Sequence record: PQ850625.1
Origin: Escherichia phage SandraMuster_Bas78
Strand: one strand, 5' to 3'
Length of the DNA: 46,496 bases
The translations under genes were made by a program, and so were the position numbers. Shown here one piece after another: positions 34,513 through 45,326 of the stretch (the stretch's first letter is position 1; the number at the start of each line of letters is the position of its first letter). Under the pieces are notes generated by a model, which saw only the letters and a list, made by a program, of their open reading frames with translations, had not been told where the DNA came from and ran no database searches.

Positions 34513-34998
34513 TTAGAAGGGTATTGAATCATCGAAGTCTATCGGATGCTCATTGCCTCCTTGTATGCTTTGTTGTTTTTGCTGTTGTTGTTGCTGTTGC
34601 GATTGTTGGCCTGATTGCTGTCGTGGTTGCTGCTGACTGGAATCATCACGTTTACCACCAAGCATCTGCATAACGCCGCCCACCTGTGGAATAACAATCT
34701 CAGTGGTGTATCGGTCTACGCCATTGCTGTCAGTCCACTTACGAGTGCGTAGCTGACCTTCGATATAAACCTGCGATCCTTTGCGAAGGTATTCTCCTGC
34801 AACTTCTGCAAGTTTCCCGAAGATGACAACGCGATGCCATTCAGTTTGCTCTTTCTTTTCTCCTGTTTGCTTGTCCTTCCACTGTTCAGATGTTGCAACA
34901 GAAAGATTGGCAATTGCAGAGCCTGATGCTGAATATTTAACTTCAGGGTCGTTGCCGAGAGTGCCGACAATAATTACTTTATTTACGCCGCGTGCCAT
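34513..34998 (-). CDS. ssb: single-stranded DNA-binding protein
   Basis: OB-fold N-terminal region typical of bacterial/phage SSB, Gln-rich linker, acidic C-terminal tip DFDDSIPF. Confidence 0.93.
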
Positions 34999-35001
34999 TT
35001 A

Positions 35002-36057
35002 TTAAAATCCTTCAATTGGAGTTGGTTTGTGTTCTGTTTTTTCTTCCTGCGGTTCTGGCTGCTGTGGTTGCGGTTTAGCCAGTTTTGCAGGATTGAAATT
35101 ATCCTGCGGAGTTATTACCACAGGAGATAATTGCTCATCATTGATAAAAGACTCAATGCGATCATATTCAGCGGCAGAAGCAGCCAGAGAAGGCCAGATT
35201 GCGCGAATTTTATCTTTCAGGTTATCAGGTATTGATTTTGCTTCTTCCTTCAGGCCTTCCATGCCTTTTGCTGCAGAAAGCTGAAGTCTTGAGCGCCATG
35301 ACTCAAACTCTTCGTCAACTTTAACTCCAGAGTCCACCCATTTGATGAGTCCGCGACCATGCGCCTCGCCAATGTATCCATGACGAACACTTTCACGACC
35401 AGACTCAAAGAAGATTGGGCGTAGTTCTTCTGGTAATTTGGTGAACTCCTGGATTTTTCCTCCATCGTGCATCATCATGCTCACGGTCATCTCGAACATG
35501 AAATCTTTCTCGCACACTGGCTGCAAACCAAGAGACACAGGTTCCTTCGGGTTTGCGAAATCAGTTTTCTGACGGGCGCGAAGGCATACAATGATATGCA
35601 TATTGCTTTGCAGCATGGCGTTCATGAACTTCTTGTGTTCAGCTTTGGCGCGCTTCCAGTCAGCCATCTTTTTACCGTTAAGCAGCGGCTTTTCAGCAAT
35701 CTCCGTGCAACTGCCTTCACCTTCCCATTCATGCGAACCTGAATCAATAACAAGAACCTTAACGCCGGCAGCCTGAAACTCTTCAATGGCCTGACGGTAA
35801 CGGGCCGGGCTGAATGGAGCATACATATCAGCGTGCAGGAATTTGCCATCAAGGATGTTTGAGTACAGGCGACCGCGACCGTTTTCAGTATCAAGGAATC
35901 CGATTTCTTCTGGTGAATCAACCATCCCGCGAGCCAGCTTAAGTGCGCTATATGTTTTGCCGCTACCTGACTGGCCTGAAATGCCGATGACCACGCGAGA
36001 ACCTGAACGCTCTGCTGGTTTAATATTGAGAATACCCATTTGCATTACCTCACTCAA
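35002..36057 (-). CDS. RecA-fold ATPase, Sak4-like (AAA_24) recombination protein
   Basis: Walker A GISGQSGSGKT near N-terminus; adjacent to SSB and exonuclease; long Pro/Glu/Gln-rich C-terminal extension. Confidence 0.55.
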   Translation of the reverse strand: MSEVMQMGILNIKPAERSGSRVVIGISGQSGSGKTYSALKLARGMVDSPEEIGFLDTENGRGRLYSNILDGKFLHADMYAPFSPARYRQAIEEFQAAGVKVLVIDSGSHEWEGEGSCTEIAEKPLLNGKKMADWKRAKAEHKKFMNAMLQSNMHIIVCLRARQKTDFANPKEPVSLGLQPVCEKDFMFEMTVSMMMHDGGKIQEFTKLPEELRPIFFESGRESVRHGYIGEAHGRGLIKWVDSGVKVDEEFESWRSRLQLSAAKGMEGLKEEAKSIPDNLKDKIRAIWPSLAASAAEYDRIESFINDEQLSPVVITPQDNFNPAKLAKPQPQQPEPQEEKTEHKPTPIEGF

Positions 36058-36247
36058 ATTCTACAAAATCACCACCAACCATTTCGACGATAATGAATCC
36101 AGATTCATCATCATATGTTGCCTGCCATATAGCTCCAGTTTCGTCGCTTATGTTAAAGGTACCACCAAAAAAGTCAGCGCTATACCACTCATCTTCTTTA
36201 AATCTTTTGCTTGTTGAGCTTGCACAAAATAATTTCATTTGCATCAC
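36050..36247 (-). CDS. hypothetical protein
   Basis: Track ORF between exonuclease and ATPase genes. Confidence 0.4.
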   Translation of the reverse strand: MMQMKLFCASSTSKRFKEDEWYSADFFGGTFNISDETGAIWQATYDDESGFIIVEMVGGDFVEFE

Positions 36248-36255
36248 CTCACTAA

Positions 36256-37200
36256 TTATAAATTAAACTGTTTTTTGAACCATTCAGGCGTTTCCATTTC
36301 TATGACAGGATTACCCATTGAATAACCGGGCCACGAATTGGCTTTTTTGCACGCCTTGTAAATTTCCATAGCGCCATGCAACTGAATTCGACCGATGCGT
36401 AATTGCTCTTCAGTCAAGCGAATTAACGCAGGAATAAATGGTGCTTTCTTTTCCTGAACGAGAAGATTAACAGAGCGTGGCGCATGACCATATGCCGCAA
36501 CAAACATGTCGTGCTGCATCGCCATTTTCATAAAGTACCCAAGTCTCGCAGCATGACGGAAAAACTCTTCTGGCTTGGCGCTCACCGCTGTTTTGTAGTC
36601 GATGATGTCGCCACCTTTGGTAAGGCAGTCAAAGCGAACTTTTGCCTTCTCTCCGTTAAGTTCACCTAGAATTGACACTTCAGCATAAGCACCAGCGAGA
36701 AGACTGCTGTAATAGCTGTTTGCGTGGATTACAGCACGCATTTGCTGAATAGCGTCATAATCACCACCTTCCAGCATTTGCTTTCCTACAGCAGCTTTTT
36801 CAGCCTCTTCACGGATGACATCGTAAATTTTCACTGGCTCGCCAGTCGCCTGGATGATTTTGATCACCTCAGCTTTCGACTTTCCTGAAAGTCCTTTGAT
36901 GCCTCGTTCTTTTGCCCATGAGTTCATATCACTTACAGTAACAAGCAGGTCATCACCAAAATCTTCTTTGGTTGGCATTCGTGCATATTCAGCATCAAAA
37001 CGCTCTGGTTCAAGCAACGCAGTATGGCTACCTGTACCGAATATAAGAGCTTTTGATTGCTCATCCTCTTCGTCTTTGTATCGCCATGCTGCTGGGCATC
37101 TGTCAAGTATATTCCATAATCCAGAACCATTAATGTGCTCTGTGTCAGCATGATAATCCTGATTGCTTAATTCATTGTTGAAATAAACTCTCATCATCAC
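36256..37200 (-). CDS. PD-(D/E)XK family exonuclease (RecB/Cas4/YqaJ-like)
   Basis: C-terminal GGDIIDYKT (D...D/ExK core) and recombination-module context. Confidence 0.55.
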   Translation of the reverse strand: MMMRVYFNNELSNQDYHADTEHINGSGLWNILDRCPAAWRYKDEEDEQSKALIFGTGSHTALLEPERFDAEYARMPTKEDFGDDLLVTVSDMNSWAKERGIKGLSGKSKAEVIKIIQATGEPVKIYDVIREEAEKAAVGKQMLEGGDYDAIQQMRAVIHANSYYSSLLAGAYAEVSILGELNGEKAKVRFDCLTKGGDIIDYKTAVSAKPEEFFRHAARLGYFMKMAMQHDMFVAAYGHAPRSVNLLVQEKKAPFIPALIRLTEEQLRIGRIQLHGAMEIYKACKKANSWPGYSMGNPVIEMETPEWFKKQFNL

Positions 37201-37823
37201 TCTCCGTGGTTACAGAATTCTTTATGCATCTTTTCTCTGAATTTCATCACAGACAACCTCGCTCTCTCAATATCATTGAATAACCCAAGATGGTATCTTT
37301 TCCCGTTAACATCACAGTAAGCCTGCCACTTTTTAACCTGTTTTTGCCAATATACACCTTTAACTCCTGATGTGTTATTTTTTGGTTTTTTAGCGTTATA
37401 CTGGTTCTGCATATTTGTTGCGATTCTTAAGTTGCAAATCCTGTTATCGTCACGCACGCAGTTAATGTGATCAATTTGACCTTCAGGCCAGAAACCATAA
37501 TAAATCAACCATGCCAAGCGATGCGCGTAGTATCTTTTATTATTTATGCTTATCTCTATGTATCCGTTATGTTTTTTCCTGCCAGCGACACTACCCTTTC
37601 TTATACCTCCACCCGTCTTATTTCTAATGAAAACCCCCGTTTCAGGGTTGTAATTTAAGCTATCCAAAACAACATCACGTGGTATTCTTTTTCTTCCTCC
37701 TATGGTGTTTGACTCTGCACTTCCCTGAGCAAAATCTTGCTTTTGCAGTTCCGATAAACTCATTTCCACAAACCTCGCACTTCTTAACGGTGATAGCCAT
37801 TTCTTATCCTCTATTGTAATCAT
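37197..37823 (-). CDS. HNH endonuclease with AP2 domain
   Basis: HRLAWLIYYGFWPEGQIDHINCVRDDNRICNLR and SGVKGVYW...KWQA; paralog of 11693..12205; 5' end lies in 131 bp repeat shared with gene at 40224..40997. Confidence 0.7.
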   Translation of the reverse strand: MITIEDKKWLSPLRSARFVEMSLSELQKQDFAQGSAESNTIGGRKRIPRDVVLDSLNYNPETGVFIRNKTGGGIRKGSVAGRKKHNGYIEISINNKRYYAHRLAWLIYYGFWPEGQIDHINCVRDDNRICNLRIATNMQNQYNAKKPKNNTSGVKGVYWQKQVKKWQAYCDVNGKRYHLGLFNDIERARLSVMKFREKMHKEFCNHGE

Positions 37824-37868
37824 TTACCGTTACATTGCAAGTAACTTTTATTTGTTACTAACGATACA

Positions 37869-38309
37869 TTAATCTACGTCATCCAGCAAGCCAAAATAGA
37901 AAAGTGTGGCTTTTTTTAGTTCATCAAGACCGTAAGCGATGGCTGCATAATGACCAAGCCTGCACATCTCTGTTAGAACTGCTGATTGATCCTTGCTCAC
38001 TCTGCTCTTACTTTTGTCACGGCGCTTTGCCTCAATCATTCCGCAGCAGTGGTTCGCACCCGGAGTCATTATTACGTTATCGCCTATTCCAGGCTTAACC
38101 CCCATCTTCTGGCGCTTCAGTACGAACTGGACGCGGCTGGATGTTCCTGTTTCATTCGGGACGTGAAACCATAGCACATCAGGGAAACAGTGTTGCATCC
38201 ATGTTCCATAACCCATCTGGTCAGTCTCCTCTTTTGGGCATTCGCCGCGATAACCGCTATCAAATACCCATATACCGCTATCAAGCTGCTTCACTTTGTT
38301 CTCCTGCAA
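37869..38309 (-). CDS. VRR-NUC-like nuclease
   Basis: GDNVIMTPG...GMIEAKRRDKSKSRVSKDQ consistent with a D...E.K...Q VRR-NUC core; immediately downstream of helicase, a common pairing. Confidence 0.5.
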   Translation of the reverse strand: MQENKVKQLDSGIWVFDSGYRGECPKEETDQMGYGTWMQHCFPDVLWFHVPNETGTSSRVQFVLKRQKMGVKPGIGDNVIMTPGANHCCGMIEAKRRDKSKSRVSKDQSAVLTEMCRLGHYAAIAYGLDELKKATLFYFGLLDDVD

Positions 38310-40215
38310 AATCTTTTCTATGGATTATGTCGCGACCTTTATCATTAATGCGATGAGTGATGCGTTTTGGCGCTTTAATCAATCCAGCATACATCATGAA
38401 CTGCTTAGCATTCTGGCATTTCAGGATTTTCCCCGCCATTGACTTATCATCAAGGTGAGGAAAAATAGCCTTTGCCTTGAACATGTTTTTCATGTGAGTC
38501 GCACCGCCATATGGGTAGAAAACTTCGTTAGCCCAGCCTTCTTTGCCATCACAACGATTAATCCAGTAGCGATACAAAATACCTTCTCCATCCTTTGTTA
38601 GCTGGACTTTGAAATCAATAACATCAGCCCACTCATTATCGGTATACGCACGCTCATTCAGCGCCGCATTCGGGTCGCGCAACACGTGATCGCAATGCCG
38701 GCAATAACGCGCGGTAGGGTCATTTTTAGTCCCGCAGCCATCATCAAAAATACGGATTCCGTGCTTATCAAAACCGCAACGGATGTAACTGAAAAACTCT
38801 TCGCAACGACCATCTGGAGATAGTGGGTCTTTTCCTATGCAACGGCGCGCATATGGGCTGTTCATTGTTCCGCACTTAGGACACGGAACCTGTTCACCAC
38901 TGCGTTTTGAACGTTGTGCTTCAGCCTCTTCCAGAATCGGGTCTTCATACAGTTGACCAAGCTCAAACATCGTTCCTGAGAAATCAAGGACCAGATGGTC
39001 TTCTTTATGATACCCGGCGTCAATTTGCTCTTTCTTCAGCAGGCGCATACCGCGACCAAGCAACTGAACAAGAAGGGTGAGTGACATTATTTTTCGTAAT
39101 ATCACGCTTGTATCCCAAAGCGGGATATTGACGCCAGTCGTCAAACAACCAATCTGGAAAACATATTTAATCTTGCCAGTGTATGCGTCTTTTAACGCCT
39201 TGCGTCTGGCTTTCTGTCCCATATCCTCGGTGACGATAGCGTAACTTCCTTCGGGTAAATATTTAGATGCCTCCTGACAGTGTTTTTTACCTGCGCATGT
39301 AATTAGTACGCCATTTCTGTTTTTTGTCAGCTCCATAACCTTGAGCATGATTTTCTGCGTGAGTGTCCCTTGCTCAAGTATTTCTTTCTGCATCTGCTTG
39401 AGTTGCTCGGCAGTAAAGTCTTGTGTACCGTCAACATCTGAACCATGGAAGTTATGCAGGTCATATTTCAAATCATCAACATCATGAAGACCAAAGATTG
39501 TTGGCACAACAAAACCGCGATCTACCATGTACTTTGTATCAATGTTTATTATTTCATTTTTCCAGTACGCACCTTTCATTGATTCAGTACCACGGAATGG
39601 GCTGCCGGTGAATCCAATTGTTATCATTTCATGCCCATATCTTGCCTTGCAGCGCCTATTAAGTTCAGTAAGTATTGCGCCATATTGTGTTGTTGGATTA
39701 TCACTAATAATATCCTGCCATGGAGCTTGATGGGACTCATCGATCAGGCAAAATCTTGGGGTAAAATCACTCAATCCACCTTTCTTAACGTCACCGTTTG
39801 ATTCATCTTTTTTATCAAAAAGTGCGTTCGCGATTGTTCCTTCAGTACCGCATATAATAGGGTATGCTGTACTTTTCCTGCCAAGAGATGCGCTATAAAG
39901 AGAATTTTTTACACCGCACTCCCACATCATCTCAGCATTCTGCTCAGCTATCTCCCCCTGTCTTGAAATTACAAGCCCATCCCATCCCATATCCTGAAAT
40001 CTACTGCAAAGCATTGAAATCATCACTGTCTTTCCTGATGAAACCGACGCTGTAACATAGCTTGGCTCAGGTTTCTTTCCAAAATTACGAATAACCTCAG
40101 CGCACTTTGCGTAAACAAGCCATTGGTAATCATATGGCTCTATGGAGCCTAGTTTTATTGATTTCTTTAAGTTACCTATATCAATTTCTGAAATCATCTT
40201 GTCTATTTTGTGCAT
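38281..40215 (-). CDS. DExH-box superfamily 2 DNA helicase with C-terminal zinc ribbons
   Basis: Motif I SSGKT, motif II CLIDESH, and C-terminal CPKCG...CRHCD cysteine pairs. Confidence 0.85.
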   Translation of the reverse strand: MHKIDKMISEIDIGNLKKSIKLGSIEPYDYQWLVYAKCAEVIRNFGKKPEPSYVTASVSSGKTVMISMLCSRFQDMGWDGLVISRQGEIAEQNAEMMWECGVKNSLYSASLGRKSTAYPIICGTEGTIANALFDKKDESNGDVKKGGLSDFTPRFCLIDESHQAPWQDIISDNPTTQYGAILTELNRRCKARYGHEMITIGFTGSPFRGTESMKGAYWKNEIINIDTKYMVDRGFVVPTIFGLHDVDDLKYDLHNFHGSDVDGTQDFTAEQLKQMQKEILEQGTLTQKIMLKVMELTKNRNGVLITCAGKKHCQEASKYLPEGSYAIVTEDMGQKARRKALKDAYTGKIKYVFQIGCLTTGVNIPLWDTSVILRKIMSLTLLVQLLGRGMRLLKKEQIDAGYHKEDHLVLDFSGTMFELGQLYEDPILEEAEAQRSKRSGEQVPCPKCGTMNSPYARRCIGKDPLSPDGRCEEFFSYIRCGFDKHGIRIFDDGCGTKNDPTARYCRHCDHVLRDPNAALNERAYTDNEWADVIDFKVQLTKDGEGILYRYWINRCDGKEGWANEVFYPYGGATHMKNMFKAKAIFPHLDDKSMAGKILKCQNAKQFMMYAGLIKAPKRITHRINDKGRDIIHRKDFAGEQSEAA

Positions 40216-40223
40216 TTCATCAC

Positions 40224-40997
40224 CTATGGCATGTCAGGCCAATAAGAGTTGCTTTTAGATCTGTTTTCACTTGGTGCAAGTAATTGTAAGTTATGCCAGC
40301 AGTGAAGGCCGCAAACCAATTTACTATTTATTGGCACTATGTGATCAACTTGCATACCAAGAACGCCAGCCATCTCATAAACCTTTTCAATTAAAACCCT
40401 TTCATGTTCAAACCATGATGGTATCGCCCGTCTTTTAAGATACTTATATTTACGCTGATGATATCTAACAACACCATTGTTTTTCTGTCTCCACTGTTTT
40501 GACTTCTCGTTGTGCTTTTCCTTGTTTTCATTGTAATACTTCTTTGATTTTGCGTTTATCTTGTTCTTATTTGCTGCGTAATTACCTTTCTTGAACTCTG
40601 ATTGGCACTTCTTACATTCAGGCCTAAGACCATCAAGTGATGATTTGTTTTTATTGAAGTTTTCTTCATTTGCATCAAGAACTGAGTTGCATTTAGAGCA
40701 TACTTTCCTTCCATCAACAAGATATCTCAGCCTTTTACCTTTGTTTCCATCGCATGATTTACAATGAGATTTTAAACCAAGCCTCATCTTCTTATCTGAG
40801 TAGAAGTAATCACTTGTTGCAGGAAGCATTAAATTGCATCTTGAGCATTTCTTTTTTGTCCCTGTGCTTGCGCAACCTGCACTTTCCTGAGCAACATTTT
40901 GCTTTTGCAGTTCCGATAAACTCATTTCCGCAAACCTCGCACTTCTTAACGGTGATAGCCATTTCTTGTCCTCTATTGTAACGATTAATTGTTTCAT
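40224..40997 (-). CDS. HNH endonuclease with N-terminal zinc-ribbon repeats
   Basis: C-terminal QVDHIVPI...CGLHCWHNLQLLAPSEN (HNH) and multiple CxxC pairs upstream; N-terminus shares repeat with 37197..37823. Confidence 0.65.
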   Translation of the reverse strand: MKQLIVTIEDKKWLSPLRSARFAEMSLSELQKQNVAQESAGCASTGTKKKCSRCNLMLPATSDYFYSDKKMRLGLKSHCKSCDGNKGKRLRYLVDGRKVCSKCNSVLDANEENFNKNKSSLDGLRPECKKCQSEFKKGNYAANKNKINAKSKKYYNENKEKHNEKSKQWRQKNNGVVRYHQRKYKYLKRRAIPSWFEHERVLIEKVYEMAGVLGMQVDHIVPINSKLVCGLHCWHNLQLLAPSENRSKSNSYWPDMP

Positions 40998-41069
40998 TGC
41001 AAGTAACGATTGATTGTTTCATGTGAGTAAATTACAATGATTCTACATCATCGTCAACAGGAAGATTTT

Positions 41070-42023
41070 ATGAGATACGACTGGAAAGATATTGAGCCAA
41101 AAATGCTTGGCAATTGGCAAGCTGCCATCATGTCTATCGTCAATGTGGATAGCAGAGTTTTCAATGGCAAGCACCAGCCATGCCCTCATTGCATGGGGGT
41201 TGACCGGTTCCGTTGGGATAATCACTTCGAAACAAAAGGCGATGGCGGCGCAATCTGCAATCAGTGCGGTTCCGGCAGCGGCATGAATTGGCTGATGAAA
41301 CTCTCCGGAATGAGCTTTCCTGAAGCGCTGGAGGCACTTGGTGGATTCCTGAATATGCACCCGCGTGAAAAGCTGGAGGCAATCAGGAAAGAGCTACCGA
41401 AGATAAATCACAGCGATGACTTCATCACCGAGCAGGAAGTCGCAGCAATCATGGCTAAAACGACTCGTGTCGCGATGAATGAGTGGACTTTGATAAATGG
41501 TATTGGTTGCGACGTTAACGTCACCAGAGGCAAATCTGGAGAACTTATTGCGGTTGAGATGATGCGAGCTGACACAATGAAACTGTGCAACGTGGCATTC
41601 ATTGGCATGGATGGTGATTCAATCAGAACGTTTTTCCGCGCAGGATACAACAAGGACTCAGCCATCAACGGCAAACTCACGCGCGGCGCGATAAGCCCAA
41701 TCGGAGAAGACAACGGGAAGTTCATTTACCTGGTATCTGATTATGCCGATGCGTGGAAGTGCCATTACTTCACTGGCGCGCATGTCTGGTGCTGCTGGTC
41801 GCCGGAAAACATGTGGGAAGTGGTGCGCTCTGTTAGCAATGAGATGAAGTCACGGTTACGCTGCATAGTTAATTATAAATTTGACGAACTTTGCGCTGCG
41901 GAAAACGCAGGGATTCCGGTGATGCTTCCTGATGATGCCGACACTATCAGGATGGCAAAGAGAATCAGGAGAAAGATTTATGACGCTGGCGAGTTGATAG
42001 AGAAAATGTCAGTTAGAAGATAA
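41070..42023 (+). CDS. putative DNA primase (zinc-ribbon plus Toprim-like region)
   Basis: ATG at 41070 with CAGGAAG RBS inside track ORF 41037..42023; CPHCMGVDRFRWD...CNQCGSGSGM resembles the zinc-binding domain of P4/T7-type primases. Confidence 0.5.
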   Translation: MRYDWKDIEPKMLGNWQAAIMSIVNVDSRVFNGKHQPCPHCMGVDRFRWDNHFETKGDGGAICNQCGSGSGMNWLMKLSGMSFPEALEALGGFLNMHPREKLEAIRKELPKINHSDDFITEQEVAAIMAKTTRVAMNEWTLINGIGCDVNVTRGKSGELIAVEMMRADTMKLCNVAFIGMDGDSIRTFFRAGYNKDSAINGKLTRGAISPIGEDNGKFIYLVSDYADAWKCHYFTGAHVWCCWSPENMWEVVRSVSNEMKSRLRCIVNYKFDELCAAENAGIPVMLPDDADTIRMAKRIRRKIYDAGELIEKMSVRR

Positions 42024-42025
42024 AA

Positions 42026-42052
42026 GAAACCCTCCGACTGGAGGGTTTTTGT
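42026..42052. terminator. bidirectional terminator
   Basis: AAACCCTCCGACTGGAGGGTTTTTGTT. Confidence 0.6.
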
Positions 42053-42357
42053 TATGCTTTGATGTTAACTTTTATTGCGAACACTTCCACCGGGTCAGGA
42101 CCGAAATGTGGGTGGGTGATGGTCTTAACCGTCCATCCATCGTATGGGATATCAATACGCCTGGATTTATCGTCCTTCTTTGGATATCCTTTTGTGATAA
42201 TTAACCTTTCGTACTTCCTTCCAATCTGTCCGCTATCTTTAAAGTTAATAAGGCGCTTCTTCCAGTAGTCATTAAAAAGGCGATACTCTTCCGTTTTATC
42301 TCCGCGAATCATGGCATCGAAGTATTCACCTTTGACGGCAAGTTGCAGGTTAGCCAT
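42052..42357 (-). CDS. possible ASCH/PUA-like domain protein
   Basis: Internal ATG (MANLQLAVKGEYFDAMIRGDKTEEYRL) of track ORF 42052..42390; pattern resembles ASCH domain N-terminus; low confidence. Confidence 0.35.
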   Translation of the reverse strand: MANLQLAVKGEYFDAMIRGDKTEEYRLFNDYWKKRLINFKDSGQIGRKYERLIITKGYPKKDDKSRRIDIPYDGWTVKTITHPHFGPDPVEVFAIKVNIKA

Positions 42358-42613
42358 TATTTCCCTCCAGAATCCAAACTGAATTACCAATACGACTGTT
42401 ATTTAAATCCTTTGACACGCGGCCATCCTTACAAAGAGAAATCAGAACCTTCCGTAACTTCGCTGCTGTCCATTCATCATCAGGAAATTCATTCACCATT
42501 GATAGACGCAAACTCCACGTAGCCACTGAGAACTTACGAAAAATTCCAAGTTTCTCCTCCTCAATGGATTTTCTCTTTCTCATCACATATAAAACCTTAT
42601 CCTTCACATCCAT
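42350..42613 (-). CDS. hypothetical protein
   Basis: Track ORF. Confidence 0.4.
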   Translation of the reverse strand: MDVKDKVLYVMRKRKSIEEEKLGIFRKFSVATWSLRLSMVNEFPDDEWTAAKLRKVLISLCKDGRVSKDLNNSRIGNSVWILEGNNG

Positions 42614-42623
42614 TTCCTTACCC

Positions 42624-42815
42624 TCACTTAATCATCATCTTTGAAATATCAACGTGACCAACACAAAATCTGTGCCAGTAATCATCAAGCATGTGGTAAT
42701 TAGAGCGAATCCATACTTTGTTAATCCGGCTCCAGAAAAACCACGTCGAATAACCATGCGGCCTGAAATGCCATAAACCTTCTGAGCGACAAATTTCGCC
42801 TGATATTGTTCTCAT
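42624..42815 (-). CDS. hypothetical protein
   Basis: Track ORF, start overlaps upstream stop. Confidence 0.35.
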   Translation of the reverse strand: MRTISGEICRSEGLWHFRPHGYSTWFFWSRINKVWIRSNYHMLDDYWHRFCVGHVDISKMMIK

Positions 42816-44368
42816 TTCAACCTCGGATTTATGTGAACAGTATTCCCGATAAATACGCAGTAACCATCCTCTTCCAGAGATGGCAATACACTTGACCTGA
42901 GTCGGTCATAAATTTTAGGTATCCCTTTGAATGGTCGTACGTTTTTAAGTGAATCATAAAGCCACTTCACCGTTACGTTTGTTTTTCCTTTCTGAGCGGC
43001 AGAGCGTAGCTTTTCGGCAACAACATCAAATTCAGAACGCTCACCAGCATATCCATTTGATTCCACGGCGTCGGTGAATGTTTTTGTTAGTGCGTCATAA
43101 ACACTGATGGCGCGACTAATTTCATTTTCACCGATAATCTTTGATTGCTTTCCTCCATCACACCAGTTTTCAGCAGCGTGAAATATTGCTGCCAGACGGA
43201 TTATTTGCTTATCAGCTTTACCCATCGCGCCACGAAGAAGGACGTGATCCCACTTACCGCCGGGAAGGAAGTTTTTCTCCCACTGATTTCGTAACAGGCC
43301 AATCATTCTTGCTGAGTCATTGTGAAGCGTCAGTTTTGTTTTTTCTGCTGACACAACATTATGTATAAATCTTGCATATTCCGACCTCAAGCTATCTGGC
43401 ATTGGCTTGCTTACAGGGCAATCATTAACCATGTCCCAGTGTTCGCGATAGCCAAGCATTGATTGCTCTCGCAACATCAGGAAACGTTCAGAAAGACCGT
43501 TCCCCCTGTCGCCAGCGGCAAGAATGGCATCAATACTTTCATCCTGCGCAATCACACTTATGTTTCCAAGCACGTAACCAGATGAAACGCCACGACCAAC
43601 ACGAGCAGAACCAATGAATCCGCCATCCCAGCCCTTCAGGATGACTTCGGCGTTTGCCTTTCCACCTTCTTTTCCGTAAGAGAGGCCAAGACATGTGTTA
43701 AGGACGCTTGCCTCGTCACTTATCAGATTAAAAAAACCACCTTCATGAATGGCCTGATGCTGGACAGCCTCCGGAGTTGCGTCCGTCAGTGGATATGTGA
43801 TCGTATAAAGCTCCTCCAGCTTCTCCTTTTCGCGAGCAATATCATCGCCGATTAGTGCCTTTGCATTCTGATTACTGGCCTCTTTGTATGCCTTCATCAA
43901 CTCTTCAATGCGAAGATTTATTTTTATGATCTGCTTTTCCATCTTTTTGGAAAGGTTGTCATATTCAATCTTCACCGGATTCATGTGCATTGAGTTGATG
44001 GCAGTTTTCCCTGCTGATGGAGGCTGAGAAGTAACCACGTAAAGAGAAACTGGAAGCTCTGAATGGTAATACTCAACGCTAAAGTTTCTCGTCATTGCGC
44101 TGGCAACGCACCCAAGTAAATGCATGAACGATGTATTTATTGGGAACTGAACAGCACGAGCTGCAGCGATTGCATAACGAGACAGCAAATCTGTTCTGTG
44201 CTCACTGGTCAGTTCTGTTTCTGAGTACGTTACATCACGCTCCTTACCTTCCTTGATATCCAGCCACATATTTGAGCTTGGTGTCATGCCATGATGGAAG
44301 GCGACGCGAGCAGGAGATACTTTCAATTCCCTTGCTTCGTTGAAGATATCTTGAGCTGTGATCATCAT
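42812..44368 (-). CDS. P-loop NTPase replication protein (possible replicative helicase / primase-associated)
   Basis: Walker A-like TSQPPSAGKT in a 518 aa protein next to primase candidate and origin-like region. Confidence 0.5.
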   Translation of the reverse strand: MMITAQDIFNEARELKVSPARVAFHHGMTPSSNMWLDIKEGKERDVTYSETELTSEHRTDLLSRYAIAAARAVQFPINTSFMHLLGCVASAMTRNFSVEYYHSELPVSLYVVTSQPPSAGKTAINSMHMNPVKIEYDNLSKKMEKQIIKINLRIEELMKAYKEASNQNAKALIGDDIAREKEKLEELYTITYPLTDATPEAVQHQAIHEGGFFNLISDEASVLNTCLGLSYGKEGGKANAEVILKGWDGGFIGSARVGRGVSSGYVLGNISVIAQDESIDAILAAGDRGNGLSERFLMLREQSMLGYREHWDMVNDCPVSKPMPDSLRSEYARFIHNVVSAEKTKLTLHNDSARMIGLLRNQWEKNFLPGGKWDHVLLRGAMGKADKQIIRLAAIFHAAENWCDGGKQSKIIGENEISRAISVYDALTKTFTDAVESNGYAGERSEFDVVAEKLRSAAQKGKTNVTVKWLYDSLKNVRPFKGIPKIYDRLRSSVLPSLEEDGYCVFIGNTVHINPRLK

Positions 44369-44604
44369 GAAATCCTTTTTACGTAAACCATATCTTTGTC
44401 AGGGTATCCAACCTTTGTTGAGAATTTCATGCCTTCATTCCTGCGCATGAAATAGTTTAATGCGTTCCTCAGGCTTGCAATACCTCCAAACCTCTTCGAG
44501 TCAATCATCACAGTCTCCCCTACTGAAACCGCCGACAACCCAGAAAGAGCTGCATTCTTTTTGCCATACTTATCAAGTTTCACAAAATCCTCCAACAGCA
44601 ACAA
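44365..44604 (-). CDS. hypothetical protein, first gene of replication operon
   Basis: Track ORF; stop overlaps start of P-loop protein gene. Confidence 0.45.
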   Translation of the reverse strand: MLLLEDFVKLDKYGKKNAALSGLSAVSVGETVMIDSKRFGGIASLRNALNYFMRRNEGMKFSTKVGYPDKDMVYVKRIS

Positions 44605-45048
44605 ATTATGATTGAATCATATCATAAGTATTGAATCATGCAACATCAAATACGACTCACGTGGGTAACGTGGGGCAGCCGTGGGGAACATCACCTTCCC
44701 CACGAACTTTTACTCTAAGTATATGTAATATAATATAATTATTATTATTTGGGTTAATGGGTAATATTATTATTCATATTATAGATAGTAATTAACATAA
44801 TATTAACAAATGGATTATTTGAATATATTTATAAGGGGATGGGTATGAAATCTGCCCCTTTTTACCCACGAAAAATAAAAACATTCAAATCAATAATTTA
44901 CGATGAAAAACGTGGGGCAACCAACCTTCCCCACGACCTGCCCCACGAGCAAAAATTTACCCCACGGGCACGTTTTTAACGCATCCCTGTTGACGTAGAA
45001 TCATCGTTGATGTAGATTGAACTCATCGAAACAAACGAGGGTGAAGAG
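44605..45048. repeat. origin-like non-coding region: CGTGGGG/CCCCACG iterons flanking an AT-rich core
   Basis: About nine copies of the CGTGGG(G) core in both orientations around an approx. 130 bp strongly AT-rich stretch (44710..44845); ATTGAATCAT direct repeat; two TTGAYGTAGA motif copies at 3' edge. Confidence 0.5.
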
Positions 45049-45234
45049 ATGAACAAAGAAAGCACGTACAGCATCGACCAGATGAAGTTGTTCAGCGATA
45101 TATGCATGGCATTGTCACAACAGGTTCCAAGTCTACCTGCTGATATGCGCTCAAATGCCATCATTGATGCGGCAAACATGATTTGTGAGGCATATGCTAT
45201 GACTGAAGATGAATATAAGGCATCGAAGAAATGA
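45049..45234 (+). CDS. hypothetical protein
   Basis: Track ORF with GAGGGTGAAGAG upstream. Confidence 0.45.
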   Translation: MNKESTYSIDQMKLFSDICMALSQQVPSLPADMRSNAIIDAANMICEAYAMTEDEYKASKK

Positions 45235-45326
45235 CAGGAGCAGCATTCGAGCTTATCTCCAGTCTGGTTATCGTGGCATTCATCATTATCGCAGTGGCGG
45301 TTTCTAAATCAGGGTATAAGGAGTAA
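45231..45326 (+). CDS. small membrane peptide (31 aa)
   Basis: ATG overlapping upstream stop; hydrophobic LISSLVIVAFIIIAVAV. Confidence 0.25.
   Translation: MTGAAFELISSLVIVAFIIIAVAVSKSGYKE

Follow-up and report, generated by a model that had tools for sequence, protein, structure and literature searches.

A probable SaPI-like iteron origin beside an MCM-like helicase gene in Escherichia phage SandraMuster_Bas78

The genome of Escherichia phage SandraMuster_Bas78 (sequence record PQ850625.1; all 46,496 nucleotides are referred to as the window) contains a gap of 440 bp (44605-45048) that separates two diverging operons of this coliphage and that, at a rough probability of 0.75, represents its replication origin, of the type used by self-loading initiator-helicases. 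The element is best described as an iteron origin resembling those of the Staphylococcus aureus pathogenicity islands (SaPIs), served by an MCM-like helicase of the DUF3987 family whose gene lies in the adjacent operon; we infer this from the architecture of the region, the fold of the protein and the co-variation of the two among related phages. An earlier note, made from the sequence alone, had already read the combination of iterons and an unwinding element beside replication genes as an origin, and this proposal fits all comparative evidence given below. It is supported by the position of the repeats and of the AT-rich core between them, all of which fall wholly within a cassette that moves between phages as one piece with the helicase gene, each change of the protein being accompanied by a change of the repeats, and by the neighbouring protein, which possesses the build of known self-loading initiator-helicases (PMC4889955; PMC9371898).

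The hexamer CGTGGG occurs 20 times in the window, and nine of these copies fall within only 307 bp (44660-44966), at 44660, 44669 and 44680 on the plus strand, 44699 and 44865 on the minus strand, 44911 on the plus strand, and 44930, 44942 and 44961 on the minus strand. This is the strongest 6-mer cluster of the whole window (binomial P = 3.8e-15 for at least nine of 20 copies within 307 bp), and 5000 dinucleotide shuffles of 44605-45048 produced on average 0.18 copies and never more than three. Similarly, seven of the eight copies of CGTGGGG in the window are located in 44660-44966. The earlier note had counted roughly nine copies of CGTGGG(G)/CCCCACG in both orientations, which agrees with our count of nine, and its two example strings were found to start at 44694 and 44925. 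Alignment of the nine iterons yields a motif of 9 bp, CGTGGG(G/T)NA (CGTGGGKNA), which all nine fit and whose final A is invariant; it is matched 12 times in the window, where 1.7 matches would be expected, and none of 100 shuffles reached this number. The elements of the region are the following:

44660-44668, plus strand: iteron 1, CGTGGGTAA, matching the motif
44669-44677, plus strand: iteron 2, CGTGGGGCA, matching the motif
44680-44704, no strand: left 25-bp palindrome of iteron 3 (plus, 44680-44688) and iteron 4 (minus, 44696-44704), conserved in relatives
44705-44840, no strand: AT-rich core, proposed DNA-unwinding element, with 14.6% GC over 44705-44834
44715-44727, plus strand: 13-mer CTAAGTATATGTA at the left core edge, common to cassettes of type A and those of the phages Skate and seszw
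44748-44764, plus strand: two degenerate iteron-like copies (TTTGGGTTA, AATGGGTAA) within the core, as read from the sequence; the counterpart in the metagenomic locus L015 is GGGGTGGTGGGGTAA
44862-44870, minus strand: iteron 5, CGTGGGTAA, solitary, missing from the phages HC6, C1 and STGO-35-1
44888-44900, plus strand: match to the IHF consensus, AATCAATAATTTA, one of only two in the window and not kept in all relatives
44911-44935, no strand: right 25-bp palindrome of iteron 6 (plus, 44911-44919) and iteron 7 (minus, 44927-44935)
44939-44947, minus strand: iteron 8, CGTGGGGCA, matching the motif
44958-44966, minus strand: iteron 9, CGTGGGGTA, matching the motif

The arrangement of these copies is symmetric. 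Their orientations are + + + - to the left of the core and, to its right, a solitary - followed by + - - -, and each side comprises one 25-bp palindrome of the form CGTGGGG-N11-CCCCACG (the two centres being 231 bp apart) together with two further copies in one orientation, such that both sides point at each other; the fifth copy stands alone on the right. In the record of phage Vi II-E1 the equivalent of the right palindrome is labelled 'repeat of sequence GTGGGGCAACCAACCTGCCCCACGA'. HC6, C1 and STGO-35-1 possess an unrelated stretch of ~45 bp (about 3055-3102 of L004, L006 and L007) in place of window positions 44858-44910, by which the solitary iteron and the IHF-like site are lost and the spacing of the palindromes is shortened from 231 to 222 bp; there are two classes of spacing. 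A scan had flagged the palindromes as terminators; this was rejected, as they are situated upstream of both promoters of the region and have no proper T-runs.

The very AT-rich segment of 130 bp that the iterons were said to flank is indeed present (44705-44834), its GC content of 14.6% comparing with a genome mean of 46.4%. Positions 44720-44819 (14% GC) are the least stable 100 bp of the 46.5-kb window, with a free energy of duplex formation of -97.8 kcal/mol, which is 5.7 standard deviations below the mean of all 100-bp stretches (-138.2 kcal/mol, standard deviation 7.1), the second-lowest value being -117.2 kcal/mol. Degenerate TGGGT copies occur inside the core at 44748-44764 and also at 44838-44846. 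The 13-mer CTAAGTATATGTA is found once per locus at the core edge, likewise in the Skate and seszw cassettes with their unrelated helicase and other repeats, and its presumed reader would be a factor common to all loci that carry it. The linear ends of at least seven independent assemblies fall within the core, namely those of Akira, ZC2, ZCKP8, ZCKp20p, KpV2811 (L034) and Ymer (L014) and the IMG/VR contig L044; these ends are probably breaks due to the loss of coverage at 14% GC.

The association of repeats, core and helicase becomes apparent when phages that share the backbone of the window are compared. The features on which this comparison depends are:

41037-42023, plus strand: DnaG-type primase with zinc ribbon, common to all cassette types
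42056-44987, no strand: exchangeable cassette of 2.9 kb with the helicase and the presumed origin, without similarity to Bas80 or Skate
42812-44368, minus strand: DUF3987 protein of 518 aa, an MCM-like AAA+ helicase with C-terminal winged helix, proposed as the iteron-reading initiator
44365-44583, minus strand: open reading frame (ORF) of 72 aa, first gene of the leftward operon, with GTG start and GGAGG ribosome-binding site
44621-44649, minus strand: candidate sigma-70 promoter P_L of the helicase operon (TTGATG-17-TATGAT), a consensus match only, 11 bp from iteron 1
44990-45018, plus strand: candidate sigma-70 promoter P_R of the rightward operon (TTGACG-17-TAGATT), outside the swapped cassette and 24 bp from the right cluster

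Escherichia phage SusanneMuster_Bas79 (PQ850629), a siphovirus of the BASEL collection belonging to the Skatevirus group, is 99.8% identical to the window in the region and its flanks. The phage ChristineMuster (Bas80) is 98% identical to the window up to position 42055 and again from 44988 on, with no similarity between these points, and the flanks of the cassette are 86-90% identical to Skate. Bas80 shares with the window the rightward promoter P_R and a putative small terminase subunit (TerS) of 100% identity, whereas its cassette encodes an unrelated protein of 526 aa and harbours an AT-rich centre surrounded by ten GGTAAA copies (TTTACCGG/CCGGTAAA). Skate and seszw, which have the backbone and P_R in common with the window, possess a third protein of ~495 aa and ten copies of GGATAA (GGGATAA/TTATCC). 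Three cassette types on a shared backbone are accordingly associated with three different repeat sets, and the layout of the repeats is alike in Bas80, Skate and the window despite their different sequences. The replacement proteins of Bas80 and Skate match PHROG families only in the C-terminal, helicase halves of primase-helicases, and no relation to DUF3987 was detectable (BLASTP E>1; hhalign probability <2%). P_R starts 2 bp past the cassette junction. Because repeat array and AT core change with the helicase while P_R and the flanks stay, they belong to the helicase cassette and not to P_R or the backbone.

Exchanges and losses within cassettes narrow the association further. In IME207 and Vi II-E1 (cassette type A) the small ORF and P_L are replaced, while the repeats are kept from the palindrome onwards. 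A seszw mutant with a genome reduced by 20% to 36.5 kb retains the helicase, the repeat/AT region and P_R (PMC9825161), having lost the small ORF between helicase and repeats, two genes downstream of the helicase and seven genes of the right operon. These swaps and deletions leave no protein specific to the cassette, other than the helicase, that is found wherever the repeats occur. The minimised seszw, after 290 transfers, also displays point changes in its GGGATAA repeats (L020 3029-3709 compared with L021 3030-3709): one TTATCC has become TTACCC, one GGGATAAG has become GGGGTAAG, and one copy was gained, which may indicate either drift or an origin being tuned to a smaller genome.

The same comparison bears on the idea that a host factor, or a phage protein encoded outside the cassette, reads the repeats, the region then being a nucleoid-protein, IHF or partition-like site or a priming hotspot. 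The 13-mer shared by cassettes with unrelated helicases could be taken in this sense, as could the IHF-consensus match at 44888-44900, but a host or shared phage factor would predict the same repeats in Bas79 and Bas80, both of which infect E. coli K-12 and whose flanks are 98-100% identical; instead, the repeats change with the cassette within one host. In addition, DnaA boxes (TTATCCACA), as expected in an oriC-like feature, have no match with up to one mismatch inside 44605-45048, and HC6, C1 and STGO-35-1 do not have the IHF-like site. We therefore regard such a factor as a distinctly improbable reader of the repeats.

A packaging (pac) site, which the earlier note had named as an alternative, or a physical genome terminus read by the small terminase is contradicted by the same phages and appears very improbable indeed. 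The repeats do not track TerS: the putative TerS, located at 670-1113 just upstream of TerL, has a counterpart of 100% identity in Bas80, where the repeats differ, and conversely the annotated TerS of Akira is unrelated, yet Akira has the same repeats and a helicase that is 99.6% identical. The position of the terminase genes ~2.5 kb downstream of the region and the at least seven records and IMG/VR contigs linearised inside the core would suit a terminus, but other unrotated records open at many other positions, and a sequence of 14% GC is a likely spot for a drop of coverage and an assembly break. Moreover, in the relative KlebP_265 (helicase 86.7% identical) PhageTerm found no termini, and the genome is reported to be permuted and terminally redundant (PMC11769527).

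The protein that changes together with the repeats has the structure to be expected of an initiator under the origin reading. The 518-aa product matches DUF3987 in Pfam (E 1e-34), and a search of its sequence against the PDB gave no match. Its AlphaFold2 model, calculated with 44 homologues (predicted local distance difference test score, pLDDT, 89.7), exhibits an MCM-like AAA+ core followed by a C-terminal winged helix of the order H-E-H-H-E-E (aa 443-513, about nt 42830-43042). According to Kazlauskas et al. (2016, PMC4889955), DUF3987 proteins are MCM-related replicative helicases of superfamily 6 (SF6) that are associated with primases and carry a winged helix-turn-helix at the C-terminus, and one member has been demonstrated to be a helicase that unwinds DNA (PMC11724360). 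As an alternative binder of the iterons we considered the product of the 72-aa ORF, for which no family match was obtained. It was rejected as an improbable binder, since unrelated ORFs take its place in IME207 and Vi II-E1 although the repeats are kept there, and since its positional equivalent is deleted in the viable mutant seszw_290L.

On these grounds the following course of initiation can be envisaged. The C-terminal winged helix of the DUF3987 protein (42812-44368) would recognise the 9-bp iteron CGTGGG(G/T)NA (CGTGGGGNA arrays), and two helicase rings would assemble on either side of the core, facing it. The core, with its 14.6% GC, would then melt and the rings encircle the single strands, whereupon the phage DnaG-type primase would prime synthesis and the host polymerase presumably extend it. 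Binding would take place beside the P_L -35 hexamer and at a distance of 24 bp from the one of P_R, and would probably also feed back on early transcription; an autoregulation of P_L by the initiator at the left cluster is likely and compatible with an origin function.

Such feedback leads to the question whether the region is purely a transcriptional control region (the regulatory hub that the earlier note had named as its other alternative), in which the repeats would be operator or activator sites of a cassette-encoded protein (the winged helix or the product of the small ORF) at the divergent promoters P_L and P_R, acting for instance by looping, while replication would start elsewhere or proceed by recombination. 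Each cluster does lie upstream of the -35 hexamer of a consensus promoter, at 11 bp for the left one and 24 bp for the right one, the layout is symmetric relative to both, and the recombination module of the phage (Sak4-like protein, exonuclease VIII-like protein and SSB) could support recombination-driven replication. However, P_R is 88-100% conserved in more than 100 phages that have wholly different repeats or no such repeats at all and is situated beyond the swapped cassette, and hence can do without these sites. Neither the symmetric layout nor the core of 130 bp and 14.6% GC, whose duplex is less stable than any other in the genome and which every lineage retains, would be explained by transcriptional control. 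In the locus L016, furthermore, the element lies downstream of the helicase gene and not between divergent promoters; the small ORFs are replaceable or dispensable; and autoregulation by an initiator is compatible with an origin without being a substitute for it. We consequently judge control of transcription alone to be unlikely.

Regarding the promoters themselves, the -10 element of P_L is kept in relatives. P_R together with its 5' untranslated region (44988-45050; TTGACG-17-TAGATT ... GAGGGTGAAGAGATG) is 88-100% identical in more than 100 records of Salmonella and E. coli phages that lack the CGTGGGG region, and some genomes (Skate, seszw) contain two copies. It has the look of a conserved early-promoter cassette and, at the same time, of a marker for a recombination junction.

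The setting of the region agrees with the earlier description, according to which it holds no convincing ORF and adjoins replication genes; its coordinates and content are as given there, and the gene beside it is that of the DUF3987 helicase. The leftward operon consists of the 72-aa ORF (44365-44583), the 518-aa DUF3987 'DNA helicase' (42812-44368) and three small ORFs, beyond which follow the convergent DnaG-type primase, an SF2 helicase, an exonuclease VIII-like protein, a Sak4-like protein and SSB. The rightward operon comprises small genes from 45049 on and reaches the terminase genes. Among the replication and recombination genes in 34513-44368 (SSB, Sak4-like, exonuclease VIII-like, SF2 helicase with zinc ribbons, DnaG-type primase and MCM-like helicase) no DNA polymerase gene was recognised, and the phage presumably borrows the polymerase of its host. 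The window further contains three genes of the HNH or endonuclease VII type (1-489, 37197-37823 and 40224-40997), the third of which (257 aa) joins a Lar-like N-terminal part to an endonuclease VII/HNH part. In the record of Bas79 two hypothetical proteins, Bas79_0081 and Bas79_0082, are annotated inside the region (window 44631-44738 and 44839-44979). Since neither belongs to a PHROG family and the frame of 44839-44979 meets a stop after 10 codons in HC6, both are probably non-genes; the frame of 44631-44738 has a 1-bp indel in STGO-35-1. Rfam gave no match at E<=1 in 44300-45300.

The conservation of repeats and core extends well beyond the nearest relatives. Wherever the helicase of a sampled phage was at least 98.5% identical, repeats and core were the same; these phages belong to five named genera, Macdonaldcampvirus, Akiravirus, Deseoctovirus, Caminolopintovirus and Shuimuvirus. 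In a Klebsiella group (helicase 87% identical) the positions and orientations of the repeats are kept, while in sequence only TGGGGNA is conserved. An unbiased scan of IMG/VR located the GC minimum of the locus ~350-550 bp upstream of the helicase in 9/9 loci with at least 98% helicase identity and in 15/15 loci of the 87% group, and the top 6-mer cluster encloses this minimum in 9/9 and 10/15 loci, respectively. Three more distant loci, L015, L016 and that of Ymer (61%, 42% and 49% identity), still have TGGGG/CCCCA repeats around an AT core. Still more distant lineages have other repeats in an unchanged layout. These relatives are listed by decreasing identity of the helicase:

L015 (metagenomic), 61%: 13 TGGGG/CCCCA copies around an AT core
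Pectobacterium phage Ymer, 49%: repeats CCCCAC(G)
L016, 42%: ACCCCA repeats and an AT core in a rearranged gene order, the element directly downstream of the helicase gene, as in SaPIs
L058, 41%: repeats ACCCGT
L083, 38%: repeats GGGTAG/CTACCC
L086, 34%: repeats TGTACG/CGTACA
Vibrio phage (L013), 26%: nine CGTGTCA(T) copies (CGTGTCAT) in a gene order as in the window

The host labels of some records (OR544125, JF974312, JF974294) look doubtful. In the 'Acinetobacter phage vB_AbaM_AB4P2' the helicase is 99.6% and the region of the presumed origin 94% identical to the window, and the 'Vibrio phage pYD38-A' and the 'Aeromonas phage pIS4-A' group with the Klebsiella phages at ~86% helicase identity to the window.

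Several observations weigh against the interpretation as an origin served by the neighbouring helicase. In T1-like Drexlerviridae (helicases 35-39% identical) no repeat cluster was found within 2.5 kb of the gene, and AT-rich regions with other repeats sit 1.6-3.6 kb from it, so that adjacency is not universal. Operator or activator sites, too, would be expected where the repeats are, namely directly upstream of two promoters. The co-variation singles out the cassette as the source of specificity and not the winged helix itself. The assembly ends inside the core could reflect a physical discontinuity, i.e. a nick or an end. Finally, the retention of the region in the reduced seszw genome is weak evidence, because the genome-reduction study (PMC9825161) targeted genes. 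Concerning the T1-like phages, it can be added that those of Webervirus and Veterinaerplatzvirus have an (ATA)n-rich stretch flanked by other repeats (e.g. CCACAAAG) 1.6-3.6 kb upstream of the helicase (L073 330-520 and L011 690-900), and these stretches are possible equivalent origins. The analysis of GC skew, which the earlier note had recommended, did yield a minimum at 44-45 kb, but this coincides with the switch of the gene strand, and the skew follows gene orientation throughout; being confounded in this way, it was dropped as uninformative.

Under the origin reading, the individual features can be combined into a more specific proposal, which we hold tentatively and at somewhat less than even odds. 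This virulent E. coli siphovirus may have dispensed with a separate initiator and loader, in that an MCM-like helicase would read the iterons and load itself as two opposed rings at a dyad-symmetric origin, whose palindromes are 231 or 222 bp (about 22 or 21 helical turns) apart; it would be a bacterial-virus counterpart of MCM double-hexamer loading. Helicase and origin would be freely exchanged as cassettes of 2.9 kb, bounded on one side by a junction at the primase terminator and on the other by one that lies 2 bp before the -35 hexamer of the next operon. Nature would then have provided, in Bas79 and Bas80, two near-isogenic phages whose origins are orthogonal in E. coli K-12.

Skatevirus and its relatives form a large set of enterobacterial siphoviruses that includes the Vi-typing phage E1 and several BASEL phages. 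In the literature covered, to which the genome paper of Vi II-E1 (PMC2293211) does not belong, we found no replication origin described for Skatevirus and relatives, and the portions of the literature at our disposal call phage DUF3987/MCM-like helicases replicative helicases without tying them to cognate DNA sites. If the proposal is true, E. coli K-12 with its natural swap controls (Bas79 versus Bas80) would offer a system for the recognition and opening of an origin by an MCM-like ring, and the recombination hotspot that shuffles replication modules between phages would be explained. There would be practical uses as well, for instance in the design of origin-decoy plasmids and orthogonal phage replicons, and phage engineering would gain safe boundaries for deletions.

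Taken as an iteron-type origin in general, the region unites a repeat cluster above chance, an adjacent segment that is easily melted, and linkage to and co-variation with the gene of the presumed initiator. With regard to the protein, the window encodes a clear member of the DUF3987 family of Kazlauskas et al. (PMC4889955), with the winged helix-turn-helix predicted at the C-terminus and the nearby primase gene of that family; in its available part that study assigns DUF3987 a role as replicative helicase, without cognate origins or an initiator role; the new element is the origin proposed here.

The ori/O system of phage lambda is similar in that iterons are placed beside an AT-rich stretch, initiator and origin are exchanged together among related phages as a specificity cassette, and nearby transcription may matter. 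By contrast, the lambda origin lies inside the O gene, and its iterons, four in number and 19 bp long, are confined to one side of the AT-rich stretch, whereas the iterons of the window lie outside a gene and on both sides of the core; and O is not a helicase but recruits the host DnaB through P, whereas the presumed initiator of the window is itself a helicase.

Helicase-initiators that read short direct and inverted repeats are represented by the alpha protein of satellite phage P4 with its ori/crr, by the large T antigen of SV40 and by E1 of papillomaviruses. In the origins of SV40 and papillomaviruses, two hexamers are loaded at inverted sites that lie around or beside an AT-rich tract. 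The helicases of all three belong to superfamily 3 (SF3) and are not MCM-like as in the window, the repeat sequences and domain orders differ, and P4 needs a second, distant site (crr).

The greatest number of parallels is offered by the SaPIs, whose Reps are the best studied among helicases of this build that serve as initiators as well. The SaPI Rep helicase loads itself, with two hexamers thought to load, and binds by its C-terminal winged helix to 6-12 penta- or hexanucleotide iterons that surround an AT-rich centre, at least two on each side and in opposite directions (PMC9371898). Apart from where the element sits relative to the gene, the layout in the window agrees with this description in every point. 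Differences exist in that the SaPI ori lies directly downstream of rep, an order found in L016, while the element of the window is upstream of the helicase operon and between divergent promoters, beyond the 72-aa ORF and P_L; in that the carrier here is a virulent enterobacterial siphovirus and not a satellite island; and in that a test for sequence homology between the DUF3987 protein and SaPI Reps was negative. In both systems, on the other hand, iterons stand on both sides of a central AT-rich region with the sides opposed (nine copies of 7-9 bp here, 6-12 of 5-6 bp in SaPIs; PMC9371898), and with + + + - on the left and - + - - - on the right the window likewise has at least two iterons per side in opposite directions. 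The DUF3987 protein conforms to the SaPI pattern, in which a helicase of SF3 or SF6 bears its winged helix at the C-terminus, the Reps of SaPIbov1 and SaPI2 being SF6/MCM-like as is the protein of the window; in both cases the initiator would be the replicative helicase itself, its binding to the iterons being predicted for the window. A separate primase gene is located nearby in both and, as with the cassettes described above, the Rep types of SaPIs are unrelated in sequence, each with its own cognate ori.

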